Shown: positions 47,824 through 61,577 of the stretch, one piece after another
How positions within the stretch are numbered: the first letter of the stretch is position 1
Layout: each line of letters opens with the position of its first letter
Assembly: GCF_036507355.1 (NCBI RefSeq)
Contig: NZ_AP027877.1
Source: Escherichia coli
GTDB taxonomy: Bacteria > Pseudomonadota > Gammaproteobacteria > Enterobacterales > Enterobacteriaceae
Strand: one strand, 5' to 3'
DNA: 64,000 nucleotides
Program-made: the position numbers and the translations under genes
The notes under the pieces: model-generated
What the model saw: only the letters and a program-made list of their open reading frames with translations
Told to the model about the DNA's origin: nothing
Database searches by the model: none

Positions 47824-48768
47824 ATGAGTCCTGATAATATCGGTTCGGCTGTCAATCGCTTCTCAGGTTGGCCATCTAATGATTCTCTAAAAACAGATAA
47901 AGAATCAATGACATCACCCGTGACTGTGCAGGTAATAAAGATGATTGCCGCCATCCTTGACCCACATCGGATAGTCGTTGGAATCGATACACTTTATACA
48001 ACGCAGCGCGAAACATTTACCTCAGAGAGTCAACAGCTCATTGAATCAGCATTGCAAACACTTCATGTGATGAATTTAAATAATCTGGAAACAAATCGCG
48101 ATGAAGAAGGTCACTATCTGGCTTTTGAATATAACGTTGACACCTCTGACAGAATAACCGTTTCTGCTTATAATGAAAAAAAGCCTGGCTGCTATGGCCA
48201 ATGTCTTGTAATACAGGATGACGAAACAGACTTATTTAACCTGATAAAAATTAAAATTTTCGAAGCCAGGCATAATTATGTCGCTCAATTGATGAGCGAT
48301 CCGGAATTTATGTTCAAATTCAGTTATAGCGCTCAACAAAATAGATTAGAACCTCATCTTCTGGTTCCCGCTTATTTCCCTCTAAAAACAAACGAACCGG
48401 TTACGCAAGAGGATGTACTGTTACTTTATCGTTTCTTTAAAATGAATGATGATTTTAATAAATTAACATCAGATGAATACATGAGTATCCTGACACCTCT
48501 GATGAAGTGTGAGCGTAGCGTCCACGACAACAACAGGTATGTGACGGGCAAAGATACCCTTCTTCTGGACTATCCTCCTTCTGGTAACCAGATACATTTC
48601 CATGTTTTCCCTGACGAATCAGCAACACTAGTCCTTTATTTTTCAAACAATGACCTTGAATGTTTCGTCTTTGAAAGAGATATTCCTAGCCAGTATCGCT
48701 TTTTCAAAATGTTTACCAATCTGGCACTGGTTATAGATCAGTTAACCGAAGCCAATAAAATACTTTAA
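47824..48768 (+). CDS. Hypothetical protein, AT-rich, no recognisable domain
   Basis: 314-aa uninterrupted ORF with visibly lower GC than flanking core genes; absent from the K-12 gene order at this locus. Confidence 0.55.
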   Translation: MSPDNIGSAVNRFSGWPSNDSLKTDKESMTSPVTVQVIKMIAAILDPHRIVVGIDTLYTTQRETFTSESQQLIESALQTLHVMNLNNLETNRDEEGHYLAFEYNVDTSDRITVSAYNEKKPGCYGQCLVIQDDETDLFNLIKIKIFEARHNYVAQLMSDPEFMFKFSYSAQQNRLEPHLLVPAYFPLKTNEPVTQEDVLLLYRFFKMNDDFNKLTSDEYMSILTPLMKCERSVHDNNRYVTGKDTLLLDYPPSGNQIHFHVFPDESATLVLYFSNNDLECFVFERDIPSQYRFFKMFTNLALVIDQLTEANKIL

Positions 48769-48848: not shown

Positions 48849-49271
48849 ATGATACCATCTCAGATCTCTTTCAATACCCTTCCAGTCAATGCAACATACG
48901 CTTCAGAGACAACAGTTGACACACAAAAATTCTCTGACATCCTCTACTCAGCGGGGTGTTCCCTAAAGGATATGGCTTATCTGAGCAGATGTCTGGCATC
49001 AATACACCCGACTATCGCCAAAAACATTTATGAAACAGAAAATCTCAGCGATCAAAAATTACTGCATATTGATTGCCGTAGTACAAATGAAATCAAGATA
49101 AATATCTTTTTTGGTCAGCAAAGAGAAGGGTTAATTGAAATTAGTTCTGACACAGTTATTTTTTCGATACTGTCTTCATTGATTGACTCCGCCATTTCTA
49201 AATTTCAACACCAAAACCCGGTTAACGGTTTAGTTAATCCTGAAATATTGTATGAGGATTATACTGATTAA
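48849..49271 (+). CDS. Hypothetical protein, AT-rich
   Basis: 140-aa ORF immediately downstream of and co-oriented with the 314-aa ORF; plausible RBS (ggaaag) upstream. Confidence 0.45.
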   Translation: MIPSQISFNTLPVNATYASETTVDTQKFSDILYSAGCSLKDMAYLSRCLASIHPTIAKNIYETENLSDQKLLHIDCRSTNEIKINIFFGQQREGLIEISSDTVIFSILSSLIDSAISKFQHQNPVNGLVNPEILYEDYTD

Positions 49272-49818: not shown

Positions 49819-50268
49819 ATGAAGAAAGCAACACTTGTGATTGGCGTTATTGGCGCGGACTGCCATGCAGTAGGCAATAAAGTTCTGGACCGCGTTTTTA
49901 GCAACCACGACTTCAGAGTCATTAATCTGGGCGTAATGGTCAGCCAGGACGAATATATTGATGCTGCCATTGAAACTGGCGCTGACGCGATTGTCGTCTC
50001 CTCTATCTATGGGCATGGCGATATCGACTGTCTGGGCATGCGCGAACGCTGCATCGAGCGTGGACTGGGGGACATCCTGCTCTATGTGGGCGGTAACCTG
50101 GTGGTCGGAAAACATGACTTCGCTGACGTGGAAACCAAATTCAAAGAGATGGGATTTGATCGCGTCTTTGCCCCAAGTCATGACTTAGAAGATGTTTGTC
50201 AGCTGATGGCCCACGATATCAACCAACGTCATGACATTGATACTCGTATTCTTGAAGAGGCTATCTGA
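49819..50268 (+). CDS. glmS: Glutamate mutase sigma subunit (B12-binding)
   Basis: [22 protein letters not shown]... with the DxHxxG cobalamin-binding motif; about 149 aa; RBS aaagga. Confidence 0.85.
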
Positions 50269-51656
50269 TGCAAATCGTCTCTGTCGATATTGGATCGACG
50301 TGGACCAAAGCAGCCCTCTTCACCCGGGAGGGGGACGCGTTAACGTTGGTTAACCACGTACTGACCCCAACCACCACCCATCATCTGGCGAAGGGGTTTT
50401 TCTCCAGCCTGAACCAAGTGTTAAACGTAGATAATGCCCTCCCCCTGTTAAACAGCGGTGAGGTTGCATTGAAGTATTCCTCCTCTGCCAAAGGTGGGCT
50501 GGCGGTTGCCGCAATGGGATTGGTGCCTTCTATCACCCTGGAAACCGCGAAAGTAACCGCTCACTCTGCGGGTGCTAAAATTGCGCAATATTACGCCTAC
50601 AAGCTGAACCGCCGTGATATCCAGGCACTGGAAGAAACGCAGCCCGATATTCTCTTGTTCACCGGCGGCACCGACGGCGGAGAAGAAAGCTACGGACTGA
50701 ATAACGCCCGTGTGCTGGCAGAATCCAAACTCGACTGCGCCATTATTTATGCCGGAAACCGGGATATTCAGGACGAGGTGCAGGAGCTCCTCGGGCATAA
50801 AGACCTGACCATCGTCGACAATGTTCTGCCCGATCTTGACCATCCGAACCCTTTAGCCGCACGCCAGGCTATTTGCGACATATTCCTTAAACGCATCGTT
50901 AAAGGGAAAGGGCTGGATGTCATTGTTGATAAAACAGGCGAAGAACCAATGCCGACACCATGGACGGTCTTTGAACTGGTCAAGGCAATCAGTAACGTCG
51001 ATCACAGCTGGAAAGAGTTCATGCTGATCGACATGGGCGGCGCAACCACCGATGTTTATTCCGTCTGTGCCAACACGCTCTCGCCCGACACCGTTTTACA
51101 CGGCGTACCGGAACCCTTCGTAAAACGGACGGTGGAAGGCGATCTGGGAATGCGCGTCTCGGCAGTGGTGGTTGGTGAAAGTGCGAAAGAGTTAGTCAAT
51201 GTGAATTTTGCTCAGCAACCCGCACAGCTGGACGCTTTTTATCATTACCTCCGTCATCTAGTCGCTCATCCCGACTACTTACCCGCAAATGCAGAAGAGA
51301 AATATTTCGATACCGTCCTGGCCGGACTGTGTGTGGGTTATGCCACCGAAAGACATGCGGGCACCAAAAAAGAGGTCTGCACCTGCGTCGGCAATGTCGA
51401 TTTACAGATGGGACGTGACCTGACAACCGTGCGTAAAGTCGTCGGATCCGGCGGATGGCTCTCGCGTGCCAGTCAGTTCGATATGCATCACTGGTTGAAA
51501 TACCGCGAGTTAAACGACGACGGTAAACGCATTCTCTTACCGACCGAATTTGAATATTACCGCGATTCCCGGGGGCTATTACCACTGCTGGCAAACGTCG
51601 CCAGAGTCGATCCGCTGGCCGCCGCGCGCACCAGTATTCAATGCTTAACCCTATAA
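50268..51656 (+). CDS. glmL: Glutamate mutase accessory protein GlmL/MutL-like
   Basis: 462 aa between the S and E subunit genes, the size and position expected for GlmL. Confidence 0.75.
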   Translation: MQIVSVDIGSTWTKAALFTREGDALTLVNHVLTPTTTHHLAKGFFSSLNQVLNVDNALPLLNSGEVALKYSSSAKGGLAVAAMGLVPSITLETAKVTAHSAGAKIAQYYAYKLNRRDIQALEETQPDILLFTGGTDGGEESYGLNNARVLAESKLDCAIIYAGNRDIQDEVQELLGHKDLTIVDNVLPDLDHPNPLAARQAICDIFLKRIVKGKGLDVIVDKTGEEPMPTPWTVFELVKAISNVDHSWKEFMLIDMGGATTDVYSVCANTLSPDTVLHGVPEPFVKRTVEGDLGMRVSAVVVGESAKELVNVNFAQQPAQLDAFYHYLRHLVAHPDYLPANAEEKYFDTVLAGLCVGYATERHAGTKKEVCTCVGNVDLQMGRDLTTVRKVVGSGGWLSRASQFDMHHWLKYRELNDDGKRILLPTEFEYYRDSRGLLPLLANVARVDPLAAARTSIQCLTL

Positions 51657-51674: not shown

Positions 51675-53120
51675 ATGGAACTTCGAAATAAGAAATTAAC
51701 CCATGACGAATTCATGACCGAGCGGCAACAGGTACTGAAAACCTGGGAAACCGGCAAGGATGTTGAAAACTTTGAAGATGGCGTTAAATACCAACAAACC
51801 ATCCCTGAGCATAAACGCTTCTCTCTTGCGCTGCTGAAAGCAGACAAGGAAGGTAAAACCCTTAGCCAACCGCGCGCAGGTGTGGCGCTGATGGACGAAC
51901 ACATCGAACTGCTGAAAACACTACAAGAAGAGTGCGATCTGCTGCCAAGCACCATCGATGCATATACCCGTCTGAATCGGTACGAAGAAGCGGCTGTAGG
52001 GATTAAAAAATCCATCGAAGCCGGAACCTCTAAACTGAACGGTTTACCGGTAGTTAACCATGGTGTCGCAGCTTGCCGTCGCCTCACCGAAACCCTGCAA
52101 AAACCGCTACAGATCCGCCACGGCACGCCAGATGCGCGTCTGCTGGCTGAAATCTCAATGGCCAGCGGCTTTACCAGTTATGAAGGCGGTGGCATTTCCT
52201 ACAACATTCCGTATGCCAAACGCGTAACGCTGGAAAAATCGATCCGCGACTGGCAGTACTGCGACCGTTTAATGGGGATGTATGAAGAACACGGGATCCG
52301 CATCAACCGCGAACCGTTTGGCCCACTAACGGGTACGCTGATCCCGCCGTTTATCTCGCATTCTATCGCGATAATCGAAGGCTTGCTGGCACTGGAACAG
52401 GGTGTGAAATCTATCACCGTTGGTTATGGCCAGGTCGGCAGCCTGACGCAGGATGTTGCGGCGATCCAGTCTCTGCGTGAACTTGCACACGAATATTTTC
52501 AGAGCTATGGCTATACCGACTATGAATTGAGTACCGTGTTTCACCAGTGGATGGGCGGCTTTCCGGAAGACGAATCGAAAGCGTTCGCTATTATCTCCTG
52601 GGGTGCAGCCGTCGCGGGGATGTCTGGTGCCACCAAAGTCATCACCAAAAGTCCGCACGAAGCCTGGGGTATCCCGACTGCCGCTGCCAACATTCAGGGG
52701 CTGAAAGCCTCCCGCCAGATGCTCAACATGGTCAATGAGCAGAAATTCCCGCCGTGCCCTGCGGTTGAACTGGAAATTGAACTGATTAAGAGCGAGGTTC
52801 GCGCTGTACTGAATAAAGTGTTCGAACTGGGTAATGGTGATATTGCGCGCGGTACGGTGCTGGCATTTGAAGCGGGCGTACTGGATGTGCCATTTGCGCC
52901 AGCCGCCTGCAACGCGGGCAATATTCTTCCGGTCCGTGACAACACCGGCGCGATACGCGTACTGGAAGCCGGAGCCGTTCCATTGCCAAAAGATATTCTC
53001 GATCTCCACCACGATTACGTTGCGGAACGCGCACGCTTTGAAGGACGCCAACCGACATTCCAGATGGTTGTAGATGACATCAATGCTGTATCCCACAGTA
53101 AATTAATAGGAAGACCATAA
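51675..53120 (+). CDS. glmE: Glutamate mutase epsilon (catalytic) subunit
   Basis: 481 aa, the size and position expected for GlmE/MutE. Confidence 0.8.
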   Translation: MELRNKKLTHDEFMTERQQVLKTWETGKDVENFEDGVKYQQTIPEHKRFSLALLKADKEGKTLSQPRAGVALMDEHIELLKTLQEECDLLPSTIDAYTRLNRYEEAAVGIKKSIEAGTSKLNGLPVVNHGVAACRRLTETLQKPLQIRHGTPDARLLAEISMASGFTSYEGGGISYNIPYAKRVTLEKSIRDWQYCDRLMGMYEEHGIRINREPFGPLTGTLIPPFISHSIAIIEGLLALEQGVKSITVGYGQVGSLTQDVAAIQSLRELAHEYFQSYGYTDYELSTVFHQWMGGFPEDESKAFAIISWGAAVAGMSGATKVITKSPHEAWGIPTAAANIQGLKASRQMLNMVNEQKFPPCPAVELEIELIKSEVRAVLNKVFELGNGDIARGTVLAFEAGVLDVPFAPAACNAGNILPVRDNTGAIRVLEAGAVPLPKDILDLHHDYVAERARFEGRQPTFQMVVDDINAVSHSKLIGRP

Positions 53121-54361
53121 TGAAAATAAAACAGGCTCTGTTCACCGCTGGCTACTCCTCATTCTATTTCGATGACCAGCAGGCGATAAAAAACGGAGCG
53201 GGTCATGACGGCTTTTTTTATACCGGGGAGCCGGTAACACAGGGGTTTAACGCCGTTCGTCAGGCCGGGGAGTGCGTATCGGTACAGTTGATTCTGGAAA
53301 ACGGCGCGGTCGCTGTAGGTGACTGTGCTGCCGTACAGTATTCCGGGGCAGGTGGTCGCGACCCACTGTTCCTCGCAGAGCTCTTTATTCCGTTCCTCAA
53401 CGACCATATCAAGCCATTACTGGTAGGCCGCGATGTGGATGCTTTCCTGCCGAATGCCCGTTTCTTCGACAAATTGCGTATTGACGGCAACTTGCTGCAT
53501 ACCGCCGTGCGCTACGGATTATCACAGGCGCTGCTTGATGCTACCGCGCTGGCAACCGGCCGTCTGAAAACTGAAGTGGTCTGTGATGAATGGCAGTTGC
53601 CACGCGTGGCGGAATCCATTCCATTATTTGGTCAGAGCGGCGACGATCGATATATCGCCGTCGATAAGATGATCCTTAAGGGCATCGACGTGCTGCCCCA
53701 TGCGCTGATTAATAACGTCGAAGAGAAGCTGGGCTTTAAAGGTGAAAAACTGCGCGAATATGTCCGCTGGTTGTCGGATCGCATTCTAAGCAAGCGCACC
53801 AGCGCACGCTACCACCCAACCTTGCACATCGATGTATACGGCACTATCGGTCTGATCTTCGATATGGATCCGCTTCGCTGTGCGCAATACATCGCCAGCC
53901 TGGAAAAAGAAGCGCAAGGCCTGCCGCTCTACATTGAAGGGCCGGTCGATGCCGGTAACAAGCCCGATCAAATTCGCCTGCTGACCGCGATTACCAAAGA
54001 GCTGACGCGCCTCGGTTCCGGCGTGAAAATTGTGGCCGATGAATGGTGTAACACCTACCAGGATGTTGTTGATTTCACTGATGCCGCCAGTTGTCACATG
54101 GTGCAAATCAAAACCCCGGATCTGGGCAGTATTCACAACATCGTCGATGCGGTTCTTTACTGCAACAGCCACAGCATGGAAGCGTACCAGGGCGGCACCT
54201 GCAATGAAACTGATGTCAGTGCCCGCACCTGTGTCCACGTCGCCCTTGCCGCTCGCCCTATGCGTATGCTGGTAAAGCCAGGGATGGGCTTTGACGAAGG
54301 CCTCGATATCGTCTTCAACGAAATGAATCGTACTATCGCGCTGTTGCAGGCTAAGGATTAA
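53120..54361 (+). CDS. 3-methylaspartate ammonia-lyase (enolase superfamily)
   Basis: 413 aa, directly downstream of glmE. Confidence 0.82.
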   Translation: MKIKQALFTAGYSSFYFDDQQAIKNGAGHDGFFYTGEPVTQGFNAVRQAGECVSVQLILENGAVAVGDCAAVQYSGAGGRDPLFLAELFIPFLNDHIKPLLVGRDVDAFLPNARFFDKLRIDGNLLHTAVRYGLSQALLDATALATGRLKTEVVCDEWQLPRVAESIPLFGQSGDDRYIAVDKMILKGIDVLPHALINNVEEKLGFKGEKLREYVRWLSDRILSKRTSARYHPTLHIDVYGTIGLIFDMDPLRCAQYIASLEKEAQGLPLYIEGPVDAGNKPDQIRLLTAITKELTRLGSGVKIVADEWCNTYQDVVDFTDAASCHMVQIKTPDLGSIHNIVDAVLYCNSHSMEAYQGGTCNETDVSARTCVHVALAARPMRMLVKPGMGFDEGLDIVFNEMNRTIALLQAKD

Positions 54362-54364
54362 CAA

Positions 54365-55734
54365 ATGGCTCGTTCTTTTAAAGTCTTATCGCCAACAGCA
54401 ATCCTCGGGTATGGATTCCCGGAAGAGAGCTTCCGCAAAGCGATGGCAGAATCACCCGATCTGATCGCCGTTGATGCAGGCTCTTCCGATCCAGGCCCCC
54501 ACTACCTCGGGCAGGCAAACCGTTTACCGATCGCGCAGGGGTCAAGCGCGATCTGCGCTATATGATCACCGCAGGCGTGCAAAATAATATACCGGTGGTG
54601 ATCGGAACGGCCGGCGGTTCTGGTGCCGCTCCACACCTGGAGTGGTGCCGAGAAATAATTCATGAGATTGCCCAGGAAGAGCACCTCTCGTTCTCGATGG
54701 CGTTGATCCCGGCAGACGTTGACAAAGCCATCGTCCACCAGGCGCTGGATAACGGCAAAATCACGGCGCTGGATTTTGTCCCGCCGTTAACCCACGACGC
54801 GATTGACGAAAGTACGTATATCGTCGCGCAAATGGGCATCGAACCCTTCCAGCGGGCGCTAAAAGAAGGCGCGCAAGTGGTGCTGGGTGGGCGCGCTTAC
54901 GACCCGGCCTGCTTTGCTGCGCTACCGATCATGCAAGGCTTTGATGAAGGTCTGGCGCTGCATTGTGGGAAAATCCTTGAATGCGCGGCAATCGCCGCAA
55001 CGCCCGGCTCAGGCTCTGACTGTGCGATGGGCATCATTGATGACAACGGCTTTACGCTGAAGACATTTAATCCGAAGCGTAAATTTACCGAAACGTCAGC
55101 AGCTGCACACACACTGTATGAGAAATCCGATCCCTACTTCCTGCCAGGACCTGGCGGCGTGTTGAACCTGAAAGGCTGCACATTTAAAGCAGTCAATGAC
55201 GGCGAAGTCTACGTCAGCGGTTCTAAGCATGAAGAAACGCCGTATGCCCTGAAACTGGAAGGTGCACGACGGGTGGGCTTCCGCTGTCTGACCATCGCCG
55301 GAACGCGCGACCCGATTATGATCGCCGGGATCGATAAACTCATCGATGAAGTCAAAACCAGCGTTTCGCGTAACCTGTCGCTCGACGATGACAGCATTCG
55401 CATCAATTTCCACCTGTACGGCAAAAACGGGGTGATGGGAGACCATGAACCGATGCAAACTGCCGGGCATGAGCTGGGGATTGTTCTTGATGTAGTTGCA
55501 CCGACCCAGGAAATTGCCAATAGCGTTTGCTCGCTGGTGCGCTCTACCATGCTGCACTACGGCTATGAAAACCGCATCGCTACCGCAGGTAATCTGGCGT
55601 TCCCGTTCTCCCCTTCTGATATCCAGGGCGGGCCGGTATACGAATTTTCCATATATCACCTGATTGAAGCCAACGACGCTCTGCGTTTTGATTTCCATAT
55701 TGAACAGGTGACGCCAGAAGGAGTTCAGGCATGA
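54365..55734 (+). pseudogene. AtuA-like DUF1446 protein with an apparent +1 frameshift near 54515-54565
   Basis: Two consecutive ORFs (54365..54565 and 54562..55734) in different frames together make one ~455-aa DUF1446-type protein. Confidence 0.55.
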
Positions 55735-56048
55735 AACAGTCAATTGTCTCACTGGCGCAAGTCATTCGTTCGAAAAATGCCGGACCTTACGAACTGGTTT
55801 TAGATATTTTATTTAAAACGAAAGAAAACTATGAGCGAGTTAAATCATCAGGGCAATTAACCCCAGAACTGATTGCGCGCTTATATCATGTTGAACCTGA
55901 CTTTATTCATCGTATTGTCTGGTTTGATCCTTCTAACGCAGTAAAAATCGTCATGCCACGAGATATTATCTCCGGGAATGTAGGTGACAATGATGTCTAT
56001 GGTGCACAGCAACATGCACCTTTATTAAATATGAGTTTCGATTTGTAA
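55731..56048 (+). CDS. DUF4387-family small protein (partner of DUF1446)
   Basis: 105 aa, start overlaps the DUF1446 stop. Confidence 0.6.
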   Translation: MKQSIVSLAQVIRSKNAGPYELVLDILFKTKENYERVKSSGQLTPELIARLYHVEPDFIHRIVWFDPSNAVKIVMPRDIISGNVGDNDVYGAQQHAPLLNMSFDL

Positions 56049-56208: not shown

Positions 56209-57489
56209 ATGAAGAAAATAAGTTTAACCACGATGATTCTTTTGGCGCTGGTACTTGGAATGATTATCGGCGTAGTGCTCAATAACACTGCTTCACCGGA
56301 AACAGCAAAACTCTATGCGCAAGAAATATCGATATTCACGACGATTTTCTTACGACTGATAAAAATGATTATCGCTCCGTTAGTGGTCTCTACCCTGGTG
56401 GTAGGTATTGCTAAAATGGGCGATGCCAAAGCCCTTGGTCGTATTTTTTCTAAAACACTCTTTTTATTTATTTGCGCCTCATTGCTGTCAATTGCCTTAG
56501 GCTTGATAACGGTAAATTTCTTCATGCCAGGCACAGGAATTAATTTTGTTGCACACGGTGCCGAAACCACAGGAGTGGTCGCGTCAGAACCCTTTACGCT
56601 AAAAGTATTTATTTCGCATGCTTTCCCCACCAGCATTGTCGATGCCATGGCGCACAATGAAATTTTGCAAATCGTGGTGTTCTCAATTTTCCTCGGCTGT
56701 AGCCTGACGGCGATTGGCGAGAAAGGCAGCGCCATCGTTCACGCCTTAGATTCGCTGGCACATGCCATGTTAAAGCTCACTGGCTACGTCATGCTCTTCG
56801 CTCCCCTGACCGTATTCGCCGCTATTTCAGCATTGATTGCTGAACGAGGACTGGCAGTTATGGTGAGCGCCGGGATCTTTATGGGTGAATTTTATTTCAC
56901 CATGTTATTACTTTGGGTGCTGCTTATCGGTCTGGCCATCGTTTATGTCGGCCCCTGCATCAGACGCCTGACCCGCGCCCTTTCGGAACCCGCCCTGCTG
57001 GCATTTACCACATCCAGTTCTGAAGCGGCTTTTCCGGGAACGCTTGAAAAACTGGAGCAATTTGGCGTTTCCCCCAAAATTGCCAGCTTTGTCTTACCCA
57101 TTGGCTACTCATTTAATCTCGTTGGATCAATGGCCTACTGCTCCTTCGCCACAGTTTTCATCGCCCAGGCCTGCAATATCCATTTATCCATCGGTGAGCA
57201 AATCACCATGCTGTTGATCCTGATGTTGACCTCGAAAGGAATGGCTGGCGTACCACGCGCCTCAATGGTGGTTATCGCCGCCACGCTCAACCAGTTCAAT
57301 ATTCCGGAAGCGGGGCTGATCTTGCTGATGGGCGTTGATCCGTTCCTTGATATGGGGCGTTCCGCGACAAACGTCATGAGCAACGCAATGGGCGCTGCGA
57401 TGGTGAGTCGGTGGGAAGGCGAACATTTCGGCGAGGGCTGTCGGGGTAAAGCATTAAAACCCAATGAATCGAACGTTGCTCTGCCCTGA
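56209..57489 (+). CDS. Dicarboxylate/amino acid:cation symporter (DAACS/GltP-DctA family)
   Basis: About 427-aa polytopic membrane protein; ATG at 56209 preceded by RBS ggagg. Confidence 0.8.
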   Translation: MKKISLTTMILLALVLGMIIGVVLNNTASPETAKLYAQEISIFTTIFLRLIKMIIAPLVVSTLVVGIAKMGDAKALGRIFSKTLFLFICASLLSIALGLITVNFFMPGTGINFVAHGAETTGVVASEPFTLKVFISHAFPTSIVDAMAHNEILQIVVFSIFLGCSLTAIGEKGSAIVHALDSLAHAMLKLTGYVMLFAPLTVFAAISALIAERGLAVMVSAGIFMGEFYFTMLLLWVLLIGLAIVYVGPCIRRLTRALSEPALLAFTTSSSEAAFPGTLEKLEQFGVSPKIASFVLPIGYSFNLVGSMAYCSFATVFIAQACNIHLSIGEQITMLLILMLTSKGMAGVPRASMVVIAATLNQFNIPEAGLILLMGVDPFLDMGRSATNVMSNAMGAAMVSRWEGEHFGEGCRGKALKPNESNVALP

Positions 57490-57596: not shown

Positions 57597-59249
57597 ATGT
57601 CCAAACCATTTATCTGGCAAGAACCGTTTCTACAAAATAAAGACGGTACAGAATATACATTAATTAGCGATCAACATATTACAGTAACGGAATTAGACGG
57701 CGAAGAAGTGATAAAAATCGCTCCTGAAGCATTAACGCTGCTTGCCCGGCAGGCATTTTATGAAGCCTCTTTTTTCTTACGTTCCGCTCATTTGCAACAG
57801 GTCGCCAGCATTCTTAACGATCAGCAGGCCAGCAGTAATGATAAATACGTTGCGTTGCAGTTATTACGTAATGCTGAAGTCTCAGCAAAAGGGGTATTAC
57901 CCAACTGTCAGGATACCGGCACCGCAACTATTGTTGCCAGTAAAGGGCAACAGATATGGACCGGAAGTAACGACGCCGAAGCTTTAAGTAAAGGCATTTA
58001 CAGTACTTTCCAGGAAAATAATCTGCGCTTTTCACAAAATGCGCCGCTGGATATGTATACCGAAGTCAATACGCAAACCAATCTCCCGGCGCAGATTGAT
58101 ATCAGCGCTGTCGCTGGTGATGAGTACCATTTTCTCTGTGTTAATAAAGGGGGCGGCTCCGCCAATAAAGCCGCGCTTTATCAGGAAACCAAATCCTTAT
58201 TGCAACCAGAAAAACTGACCGCATTTTTAATCGAAAAAATGAAATCGCTGGGCACCGCTGCCTGCCCGCCTTACCACATCGCCTTTGCCGTCGGAGGGCT
58301 TTCAGCCGATCAAACCTTAAAAGTTGCCAAGCTGGCCTCAACGAAATATTACGACAATTTGCCCACCAGCGGAAACGAGCAGGGACAAGCATTCCGTGAT
58401 ATTGAGCTGGAAAAAGCGTTGCTCGAGGCCAGTCAGCAATTTGGTATTGGTGCACAATTTGGGGGGAAATATTTCGCTCATGATATTCGCGTCATTCGTC
58501 TGCCGCGTCACGGTGGCTCTTGCCCGATAGCTATGGCGCTCTCCTGTTCTGCCGATCGCAATATCAAAGCAAAAATTAACAAACACGGTATCTGGCTAGA
58601 AAAACTCGAACACAATCCGGGGCAATATATTCCAGCCTCATTGCGGGAAGAAAATCACGCGCAACATGTACAACTGGATCTAAACCGTCCGTTGCGTGAC
58701 GTGATGCTGGATCTCGCCAGATTACCGGTAGGTACCCGCGTGTCGTTAAGTGGTCCCATCGTAGTGGCGCGCGATATCGCCCACGCCAAAATAAAAGCGC
58801 GGCTGGATAGCGGCGAATCGATGCCGGAGTACCTGAAGCATCATATTGTCTATTACGCTGGCCCGGCGAAAACACCGGAGAACATGGCCTGCGGTTCACT
58901 GGGTCCAACCACGGGCGGTCGAATGGATGGTTATGTCGATACCTTCCAGGCGGCCGGCGGCAGTCTGGTGATGTTATCGAAAGGTAACCGCAGCCAGCAG
59001 GTCACCGATGCCTGTCACAAACATGGCGGCTTCAATCTGGGAAGTATTGGCGGTGCAGCTGCGTTACTGGCGCAAGAATATGTCAAAAGTCTGCGTTGCC
59101 TGGAATACCCGGAGCTGGGTATGGAAGCGGTGTGGATGATGGAAGTGGAAAATCTGCCCGCATTCATCCTGGTAGATGATAAAGGCAATAATTTCTTTAG
59201 TCAGTTTGAGCAGCAACACCGCTGCGCCAGTTGCCCTGCGGGACATTAA
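57597..59249 (+). CDS. fumD: Class I (Fe-S) fumarate hydratase paralog, likely mesaconase (FumD-type)
   Basis: 550 aa with class I fumarase features; embedded in the methylaspartate cluster. Confidence 0.8.
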
Positions 59250-59258
59250 GGAAAATGA

Positions 59259-59861
59259 ATGGAAGCGCGAATTTCAACTGAACGGCATGTGCAGCGCCAA
59301 CAGAAATTGAAGGAACAGGTCGATACGCGCGTCGCGGCGGCGATAGAGAAAAAAGGGATCTTGATTGTTTTCACCGGCAACGGCAAAGGGAAATCCACTG
59401 CCGCGTTTGGTACTGTGACGCGCGCGGTGGGTCATGGCAAAACGGTGGGGGTTGCGCAGTACATCAAGGGGCAATGGGACAACGGCGAATACAACCTTCT
59501 CCAGCCGCTGGGGGTTGAGTTTCATATTATGGGAACCGGTTTTACCTGGGAGACACAGAACCGGCAAGCGGATATCGACGCGGCGAAAGAGGTCTGGTCG
59601 GAAAGCAAACGGATGCTGGCTGACAAGCGTTACGACTTAGTGGTGCTTGATGAGCTGACCTATATGCTGGCTTACCATTATTTGGATACCGAAGAAGTGA
59701 TCGCTTCTCTGCAAAACCGCCCGGCACAACAAAGTGTCATTGTCACCGGACGCGGTTGCCACAGTCAGATATTAAAAATGGCGGATACGGTAAGCGAAAT
59801 CCGCCCCGTCAAACATGCTTTTGATAACGGCATTCAGGCCCAGCCGGGTATAGACTGGTAA
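59259..59861 (+). CDS. Cob(I)alamin adenosyltransferase (CobA/BtuR-type paralog)
   Basis: 200 aa with P-loop VFTGNGKGKSTAAFG and strong similarity to BtuR. Confidence 0.85.
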   Translation: MEARISTERHVQRQQKLKEQVDTRVAAAIEKKGILIVFTGNGKGKSTAAFGTVTRAVGHGKTVGVAQYIKGQWDNGEYNLLQPLGVEFHIMGTGFTWETQNRQADIDAAKEVWSESKRMLADKRYDLVVLDELTYMLAYHYLDTEEVIASLQNRPAQQSVIVTGRGCHSQILKMADTVSEIRPVKHAFDNGIQAQPGIDW

Positions 59862-59894: not shown

Positions 59895-60557
59895 TTACAT
59901 CTCCTGCGGTACGACCGATTTCGCCAGCAACCATTCACGAAATTGCTGCAAGTGCGGTGAGTCAGACTTCTCTTCCTGCCACGTCATAATAAAACGATTA
60001 CCGGTACGAATAGGCACATCACAGGGAATCACCATATCGCCACTATCCAAATCATGTTGAATAGCGAAACGTGGTAACAGCGCCACGCCGAGATTAGAGC
60101 GCACGGCGGCAATCAGCATTGAAAGCAAATCGAAACGTGGTCCGTTATTGACCAACGGACTGCTAACGCCAGATAAAGCAAACCACTCTTCCCAGCCAGT
60201 AATACGGGTGCTTTGATGCAGAAGCGGTAACTCAGTAAGCAGTTCTGCCACTGACAGCTTTTGATCGGACATTGCAAGCAAACTGCCGCTGCATACCGGC
60301 AAAATCTCCTCATCAAAGAGATATTCTACTTCCGCCCAGGGCGCGCAAAAATTTTCGCGCATAATGACAGCATCGTACTCCCGATTAAGAAAATCGCCGT
60401 TATTAGCTAAAGAATGAATATTAACAATAATATCGGGATGTAACTTTGTGAATTCATGTAAATTTGGGATCAACCAGTGGGTACTAAAAGTAGGATTAAC
60501 GGCAAGTTCAATAACCTGAACCGTAGGCTGCCAGGTCATAATGGTATTGGTATCGCG
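59895..60557 (-). pseudogene. LysR-family regulator, C-terminal part (interrupted by IS1)
   Basis: LysR substrate-binding domain; frame is continuous with the N-terminal HTH fragment once IS1 and one copy of the 9-bp duplication are removed. Confidence 0.8.
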
Positions 60558-60612
60558 GGTGATGCTGCCAACTTACTGATTTAGTGTATGATGGTGTTTT
60601 TGAGGTGCTCCA

Positions 60613-60888
60613 GTGGCTTCTGTTTCTATCAGCTGTCCCTCCTGTTCAGCTACTGACGGGGTGGTGCGTAACGGCAAAAGCACCGCCGGACATCAGCGCT
60701 ATCTCTGCTCTCACTGCCGTAAAACATGGCAACTGCAGTTCACTTACACCGCTTCTCAACCCGGTACGCACCAGAAAATCATTGATATGGCCATGAATGG
60801 CGTTGGATGCCGGGCAACAGCCCGCATTATGGGCGTTGGCCTCAACACGATTTTACGTCACTTAAAAAACTCAGGCCGCAGTCGGTAA
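60613..60888 (+). CDS. insA: IS1 InsA
   Basis: [41 protein letters not shown]...; slippery A6C site (ttaaaaaactc) near 60868 for the InsAB' fusion. Confidence 0.95.
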
Positions 60889-61310
60889 CCTCGCGCATAC
60901 AGCCGGGCAGTGACGTCATCGTCTGCGCGGAAATGGACGAACAGTGGGGCTATGTCGGGGCTAAATCGCGCCAGCGCTGGCTGTTTTACGCGTATGACAG
61001 GCTCCGGAAGACGGTTGTTGCGCACGTATTCGGTGAACGCACGATGGCGACGCTGGGGCGTCTTATGAGCCTGCTGTCACCCTTTGACGTGGTGATATGG
61101 ATGACGGATGGCTGGCCGCTGTATGAATCCCGCCTGAAGGGAAAGCTGCACGTAATCAGCAAGCGATATACGCAGCGAATTGAGCGGCATAACCTGAATC
61201 TGAGGCAGCACCTGGCACGGCTGGGACGGAAGTCGCTGTCGTTCTCAAAATCGGTGGAGCTGCATGACAAAGTCATCGGGCATTATCTGAACATAAAACA
61301 CTATCAATAA
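60807..61310 (+). CDS. insB: IS1 InsB (transposase C-terminal frame)
   Basis: 167-aa frame overlapping insA in -1 frame; ...[44 protein letters not shown]... Confidence 0.93.
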
Positions 61311-61326
61311 GTTGGAGTCATTACCG

Positions 61327-61577
61327 GTATCGCGTTCCAGCTTATTTAATGTTTCTTTTACTATCCCCAGGTAATACTTCCCAGCATCATTAAGAAAAAT
61401 GCGTTTTTTAGAGTGTGAAAATAACGGAGTACGTAAAAATTCCTCCAGCGCACTTACTTGTCTGAATACTGCACTTTGGGTTAACGCTAACTCCTCTGCC
61501 GCTCTGGTATAACTTTCATGACGTGCGACGACCTCAAAAGTCACCAGCAGTTCCGTTTTAGGTATTTTCCCTCGCAT
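61327..61577 (-). pseudogene. LysR-family regulator, N-terminal HTH part (interrupted by IS1)
   Basis: ...FEVVARHESYTRAAEELALTQSAVFRQVSALEEFL... helix-turn-helix; the frame runs into IS1. Confidence 0.8.

Follow-up and report, generated by a model that had tools for sequence, protein, structure and literature searches.

The DUF1446/DUF4387 gene pair described here is cmlA plus cmlB, encoding the two subunits of citramalate lyase, an already-known enzyme. Our overall reading, which we consider very probable, is that cmlAB encodes the heteromeric citramalate lyase of the last step of the methylaspartate pathway and that cmlA was recently inactivated in this lineage. The pair lies in a stretch of 64,000 nucleotides of Escherichia coli DNA, referred to as the window, in which it is laid out as follows.

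54365..54565, plus strand: 5' fragment of the AtuA/DUF1446 gene, 66 aa (ORF table)
54562..55734, plus strand: 3' fragment of the AtuA/DUF1446 gene, 390 aa, in a different frame (ORF table)
54365..55734, plus strand: cmlA pseudogene, citramalate lyase large subunit, 456 aa when intact (Pfam, PDB and ORFs)
55731..56048, plus strand: cmlB, citramalate lyase small subunit, DUF4387, 105 aa, intact

The division of the DUF1446 gene between two frames had been reported in the initial annotation, whose coordinates match the ORFs exactly. The stop of the 66-aa ORF and the start of the 390-aa ORF overlap in an ATGA at 54562-54565, and there is likewise a 4-nt overlap between the cmlB start and the cmlA stop. 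The domain assignments proposed earlier were right: the intact cmlA orthologue belongs to Pfam family AtuA (PF07287; E 6.7e-19, residues 63-394) and the small ORF of the window to DUF4387 (PF14330; E 2.9e-39). NCBIfam had no model matching either subunit and thus gave no curated family name. A PDB sequence search supplied the identity, as the chains of entries 9ERQ and 9EVF, released 2025-10-22, are named 'Citramalate lyase, subunit A (cmlA)' and 'subunit B (cmlB)', and 9ERQ is entitled 'Citramalate lyase - AMPPNP - citramalate complex'. The intact E. coli CmlA orthologue matched 9erq_A over residues 1-456 (E 1.2e-292) and the window CmlB matched 9erq_B (E 5.2e-57). Chain A is 92.3% identical to the window protein after repair of its reading frame, and 100% identical to the gene product of the syntenic cluster of Klebsiella michiganensis. 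The cleavage of (S)-citramalate by CmlAB is taken from the naming by the PDB depositors and from a preprint that used the enzyme, received as a gift. In that preprint, on R. planticola cmlAB, growth on mesaconate depended on a cmlAB plasmid and label from mesaconate reached acetyl-CoA. The description of the pair as being of unknown function is thus outdated, since the structures name CmlA and CmlB and the preprint uses cmlAB functionally.

Several database records give another name. The two window fragments are recorded as 'hypothetical protein VEE46_30000' (BED23232.1) and '3-methylaspartate ammonia-lyase' (BED23233.1), and records of the latter kind would fit a pair with a different job in the pathway, for example as a second methylaspartate ammonia-lyase or as an accessory factor of the mutase. 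That the pair does such a job is exceedingly improbable: Pfam detects AtuA only, with MAAL domains absent, the true Mal is encoded by the neighbouring gene, the crystal structure holds citramalate and is named a lyase, and the ammonia-lyase name of DUF1446 genes is without known basis (Kronen & Berg 2015, PMC4682846). The name of BED23233.1 is a long-standing misannotation of DUF1446 proteins, and the annotation of the cmlA fragments in the source genome should be corrected. In what follows we treat the pair as citramalate lyase.

Both genes belong to the glutamate-fermentation island of E. coli, an insertion between cydAB and sucABCD. The locus occurs in about one in five complete genomes of the species (1,125 of 5,426). 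Two intact syntenic E. coli loci, L001 and L002, provided the RefSeq annotation of the genes around the pair, all of which are intact in the window.

49819..50268, plus strand: glmS
50268..51656, plus strand: glmL
51675..53120, plus strand: glmE
53120..54361, plus strand: mal, methylaspartate ammonia-lyase
56209..57489 (alternative start 56188), plus strand: dicarboxylate/amino-acid:cation symporter
57597..59249, plus strand: FumD, class I fumarase/mesaconase
59259..59861, plus strand: cobO adenosyltransferase

The window copies from glmS to mal and from the symporter to cobO carry no internal stops. In the syntenic RefSeq loci the order is glmS, glmL, glmE, mal, AtuA-family gene, DUF4387, symporter, fumarase and cobO, followed by a convergent LysR regulator gene; the two genes of the pair are named there 'acyclic terpene utilization AtuA family protein' (456 aa) and 'DUF4387 domain-containing protein'. 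The placement of the pair between the ammonia-lyase and a transporter, as first described, therefore stands, with mal upstream and the dicarboxylate/amino-acid symporter downstream. At the edge of the island, between cydA and glmS, the window also holds two hypothetical genes, at 47824-48768 (314 aa) and 48849-49271 (140 aa), which have conserved counterparts in other E. coli genomes but lack an NCBIfam match.

Presence of a DUF1446 gene downstream of mal was already noted by Kronen and Berg (2015, PMC4682846), who characterised FumD as the mesaconase of the island, reported that the citrate, isocitrate and methylisocitrate lyases of E. coli O157:H7 are without citramalate lyase activity, and left open the fate of citramalate. 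CmlAB fills this step of enterobacterial glutamate fermentation. In the enterobacterial methylaspartate pathway, glutamate is converted to 3-methylaspartate by the B12-dependent GlmSE, 3-methylaspartate to mesaconate by Mal, and mesaconate to (S)-citramalate by FumD; CmlAB would then carry out the last step, cleaving (S)-citramalate to pyruvate and acetate. The suggestion that the pair has a role in methylaspartate or mesaconate metabolism thus proved sound, citramalate lyase being the enzyme that cleaves the hydration product of mesaconate. The reaction of CmlAB would need neither CoA nor acyl carrier protein, and a nucleotide probably takes some part in it, because the orthologue was crystallised with both an ATP analogue and citramalate bound.

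Linkage to this pathway extends well beyond E. coli. Among the candidates scored, 6,827 CmlA homologues were found at E <= 1e-5, and the top 120 were all at least 61% identical. A scan of species representatives gave at least 583 loci; the best 80 among them (L009-L088) were kept and scored by tblastn with the window proteins. Counting, among these best 80 of at least 583, the loci with enough flanking sequence, cmlB lay directly downstream of cmlA in 78/78, mal was upstream in 67/72, glmE was present in 62/68 and a class I fumarase was nearby in 31/49. Linked loci span Enterobacterales, Betaproteobacteria, Riflebacteria, Aminicenantes, Spirochaetes and Firmicutes, and the order GntR-glmS-mutL-glmE-mal-cmlA-cmlB-(P-loop gene)-fumarase was found in a distant genome of 5.4 Mb and in Candidatus Rifleibacterium. 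The counts for cmlB, mal and glmE across phyla strongly support a functional link of the pair to the methylaspartate pathway across several phyla. The co-occurrence analysis called for in the initial annotation thus came out in favour of the link among the best 80 loci. Five loci, of Accumulibacter, three Shewanella and Desulfospira (L037, L068, L072, L081 and L086), have no methylaspartate-pathway genes within 10 kb; the cmlA of these Accumulibacter, Shewanella and Desulfospira loci is 56-68% identical to E. coli CmlA. The neighbours in one Shewanella locus (L086) and in Desulfospira (L072), namely HrpA, M4 proteases and RND efflux genes, are unrelated and uninformative on function. Pairs without mal and glm neighbours may work in a different substrate or pathway context, or the genes of the pathway may be found at some other place in the genome.

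Most non-enterobacterial clusters carry, directly after cmlB, a gene whose conserved product, of about 315 aa, has a Walker-A motif (GxxGxGKST); in Terrisporobacter the gene precedes glmS. This gene is found at 11712-12665 of L008, at 11677-12618 of L006 and in 43 of the loci L009-L088, and is absent from the window and from the enterobacterial loci. For its product no Pfam hit is on record, NCBIfam matches were marginal and far below the cut-offs, and the PDB returned nothing meaningful; the protein might assist the lyase or the mutase as an accessory factor. The 314-aa gene upstream of glmS in the window was considered as a counterpart of the P-loop gene of other phyla and rejected, as the two proteins are unrelated.

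Alignment of the window with L001 and L002 placed the lesion in cmlA at a single missing G: the window reads GGG at 54509-54511 and the intact E. coli copies read GGGG, a position inside the 54500-54570 interval in which a lesion had been suspected. The frame is lost after codon 48 and continues for 18 out-of-frame codons to a stop, ending at 54565. Re-insertion of the G yields a stop-free frame of 456 aa, and the repaired CmlA differs from that of L001 by only two amino acids. Owing to the -1 deletion the window copy does not have an uninterrupted large-subunit reading frame, indicating that the window carries a pseudogene of the CmlA family and not a functional member.

The initial annotation had left the choice between a recent inactivation and a sequencing error. 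A sequencing or assembly error in a gene that is really intact would be in keeping with several observations: a one-base change in a homopolymer is the classic type of error, the remainder of cmlA is pristine, and every one of the 1,121 complete E. coli genomes that have the stretch reads GGGG. When 81 nt spanning the site were used as a query, 1,121 complete E. coli records matched, and as there was no match at 99% identity or more among them, the deletion is carried by none (0/1,121 at this threshold). To choose between mutation and error, contigs encoding exactly the FumD protein of the window were looked up, and two of these, L003 (the Logan assembly of run ERR3330519) and L004 (NCBI assembly GCA_044688185.1), each 99.955% identical to the window, have the same GGG. 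A cluster look-up further gave 8 contigs (NCBI, Logan and ENA) with a record of the 66-aa fragment, and 7 others with one of a 390-aa fragment. Since the same deletion occurs in independent assemblies, and a run of four bases is too short for a typical homopolymer error, we regard an error as highly improbable and conclude that the frameshift is a real, lineage-specific mutation. Of the two possibilities first offered, inactivation stands and error falls, on the strength of L003, L004 and the 8 contigs with the 66-aa fragment.

The frameshift also appears to be recent, because cmlA has no further stops or indels, cmlB is unchanged (zero nucleotide differences from L001) and the other island genes are intact. 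Over 15 kb, only three indels separate the window from L001, and the other two lie between annotated genes of L001. Loss of one G from GGGG after codon 48 would leave, at best, a 390-aa product restarting at Met67. Such a fragment would be without the invariant N-terminal motifs, so that the enzyme is almost certainly inactive in the lineage with GGG. These motifs were scored in an alignment of 20 relatives, 62-100% identical to intact CmlA of E. coli, in which 11 of the 18 residues 49-66 are invariant (G49, G51, K52, F54, T55, R57, V60, K61, R62, D63 and L64). The ATGA overlap permits translational coupling and the C-terminal 390 aa are unaltered, features that could be expected if the split gene worked, either because ribosomes shift frame at the G run or because the 66-aa and 390-aa products assemble with CmlB. 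This is very unlikely, given that residues 49-66, with their invariant positions, are wrong or missing in either fragment and that neither the more than 1,100 other E. coli genomes nor the 80 species-representative loci have the split. Programmed frameshifting at the G run in particular was rejected, as CTC-GGG-CAG is not among the known slippery motifs, nor is the split conserved. We therefore retain the reading of cmlA as an inactivated gene.

A second lesion was found in the regulator gene at the end of the island by blastn against L001 and L002.

59895..61577 (59895-60557 and 61326-61577), minus strand: LysR-family regulator gene, split by IS1
60558..61325: IS1, 768 bp, matching features annotated as IS1 family transposase

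On either side of the insertion, at 60549-60557 and 61326-61334, stands the 9-bp target duplication GGTATCGCG, and no further large repeats or IS copies were found in the window. The junction of IS1 with the LysR gene is absent from all complete E. coli genomes searched. L003 and L004, which bear the frameshift, are without IS1 and have an intact regulator gene, and must therefore derive from isolates different from the window strain. Because they have GGG and yet lack IS1, the cmlA frameshift probably came first and IS1 second, the latter presumably gained later in this particular strain. The frameshift in cmlA together with IS1 in the LysR gene suggests that the pathway is being lost under relaxed selection, and this strain very likely cannot complete it. 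The cmlA lesion having come first, while the regulator was intact in L003 and L004, the GGG lineage may run a truncated pathway ending at (S)-citramalate or mesaconate, which would be excreted or used otherwise. If so, the frameshift may represent adaptive rewiring rather than mere decay. Independently of this, the pairs of Shewanella, Desulfospira and Accumulibacter without mal and glm neighbours may act as nucleotide-binding lyases on other 2-hydroxy-2-alkyl dicarboxylates. Taken jointly, adaptive rewiring and lyases for other substrates make an improbable combination. As a whole, the findings on the window add no new biology, and the frameshift is a pseudogenisation that marks a lineage.

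Compared with known systems, the window pair is the orthologue of the CmlAB of 9ERQ and 9EVF (Raoultella/Klebsiella, Berg laboratory), with a large subunit 92% identical after repair; its cmlB is 84% identical to that of the Klebsiella locus (L009), and both occupy the same position in a glmS-glmL-glmE-mal-cmlA-cmlB-symporter-fumD-cobO island. The window differs from the crystallised system in the -1 frameshift after codon 48 of cmlA and in the LysR gene split by IS1. With the classical clostridial citramalate lyase/citrate lyase (CitDEF with CitCXG), CmlAB has in common its net reaction and its position in the methylaspartate pathway (PMC4682846), and a search for homology of the window pair to CitE, CitF or CitD found none. 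AtuA-type proteins belong to the same Pfam family as CmlA (PF07287) and are single chains of about 600 aa in which DUF1446 and DUF4387 are fused, such as the Thauera AtuA of 615 aa. A search of 1.84 billion representatives with CmlB gave 1,162 relatives, mostly of about 100 aa, and several of 600-735 aa with a C-terminal DUF4387; in one such fusion of 621 aa (P0258), with DUF4387 likewise C-terminal, 457 residues of the N-terminal part align with CmlA at 37% identity. On the basis of these fused relatives, with their CmlA-like N-terminus and C-terminal DUF4387, CmlAB is the split, two-gene form of the AtuA-type architecture. The substrate of AtuA-type proteins would be a CoA thioester of terpene catabolism, whereas CmlAB would act on free citramalate and is encoded in a glutamate-fermentation cluster. 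For AtuA, a retro-aldol cleavage releasing acetate from a tertiary-alcohol carboxylate has been proposed (PMC4847356), and by analogy we infer that CmlAB and AtuA may share this chemistry, each releasing acetate from a tertiary-alcohol carboxylate.
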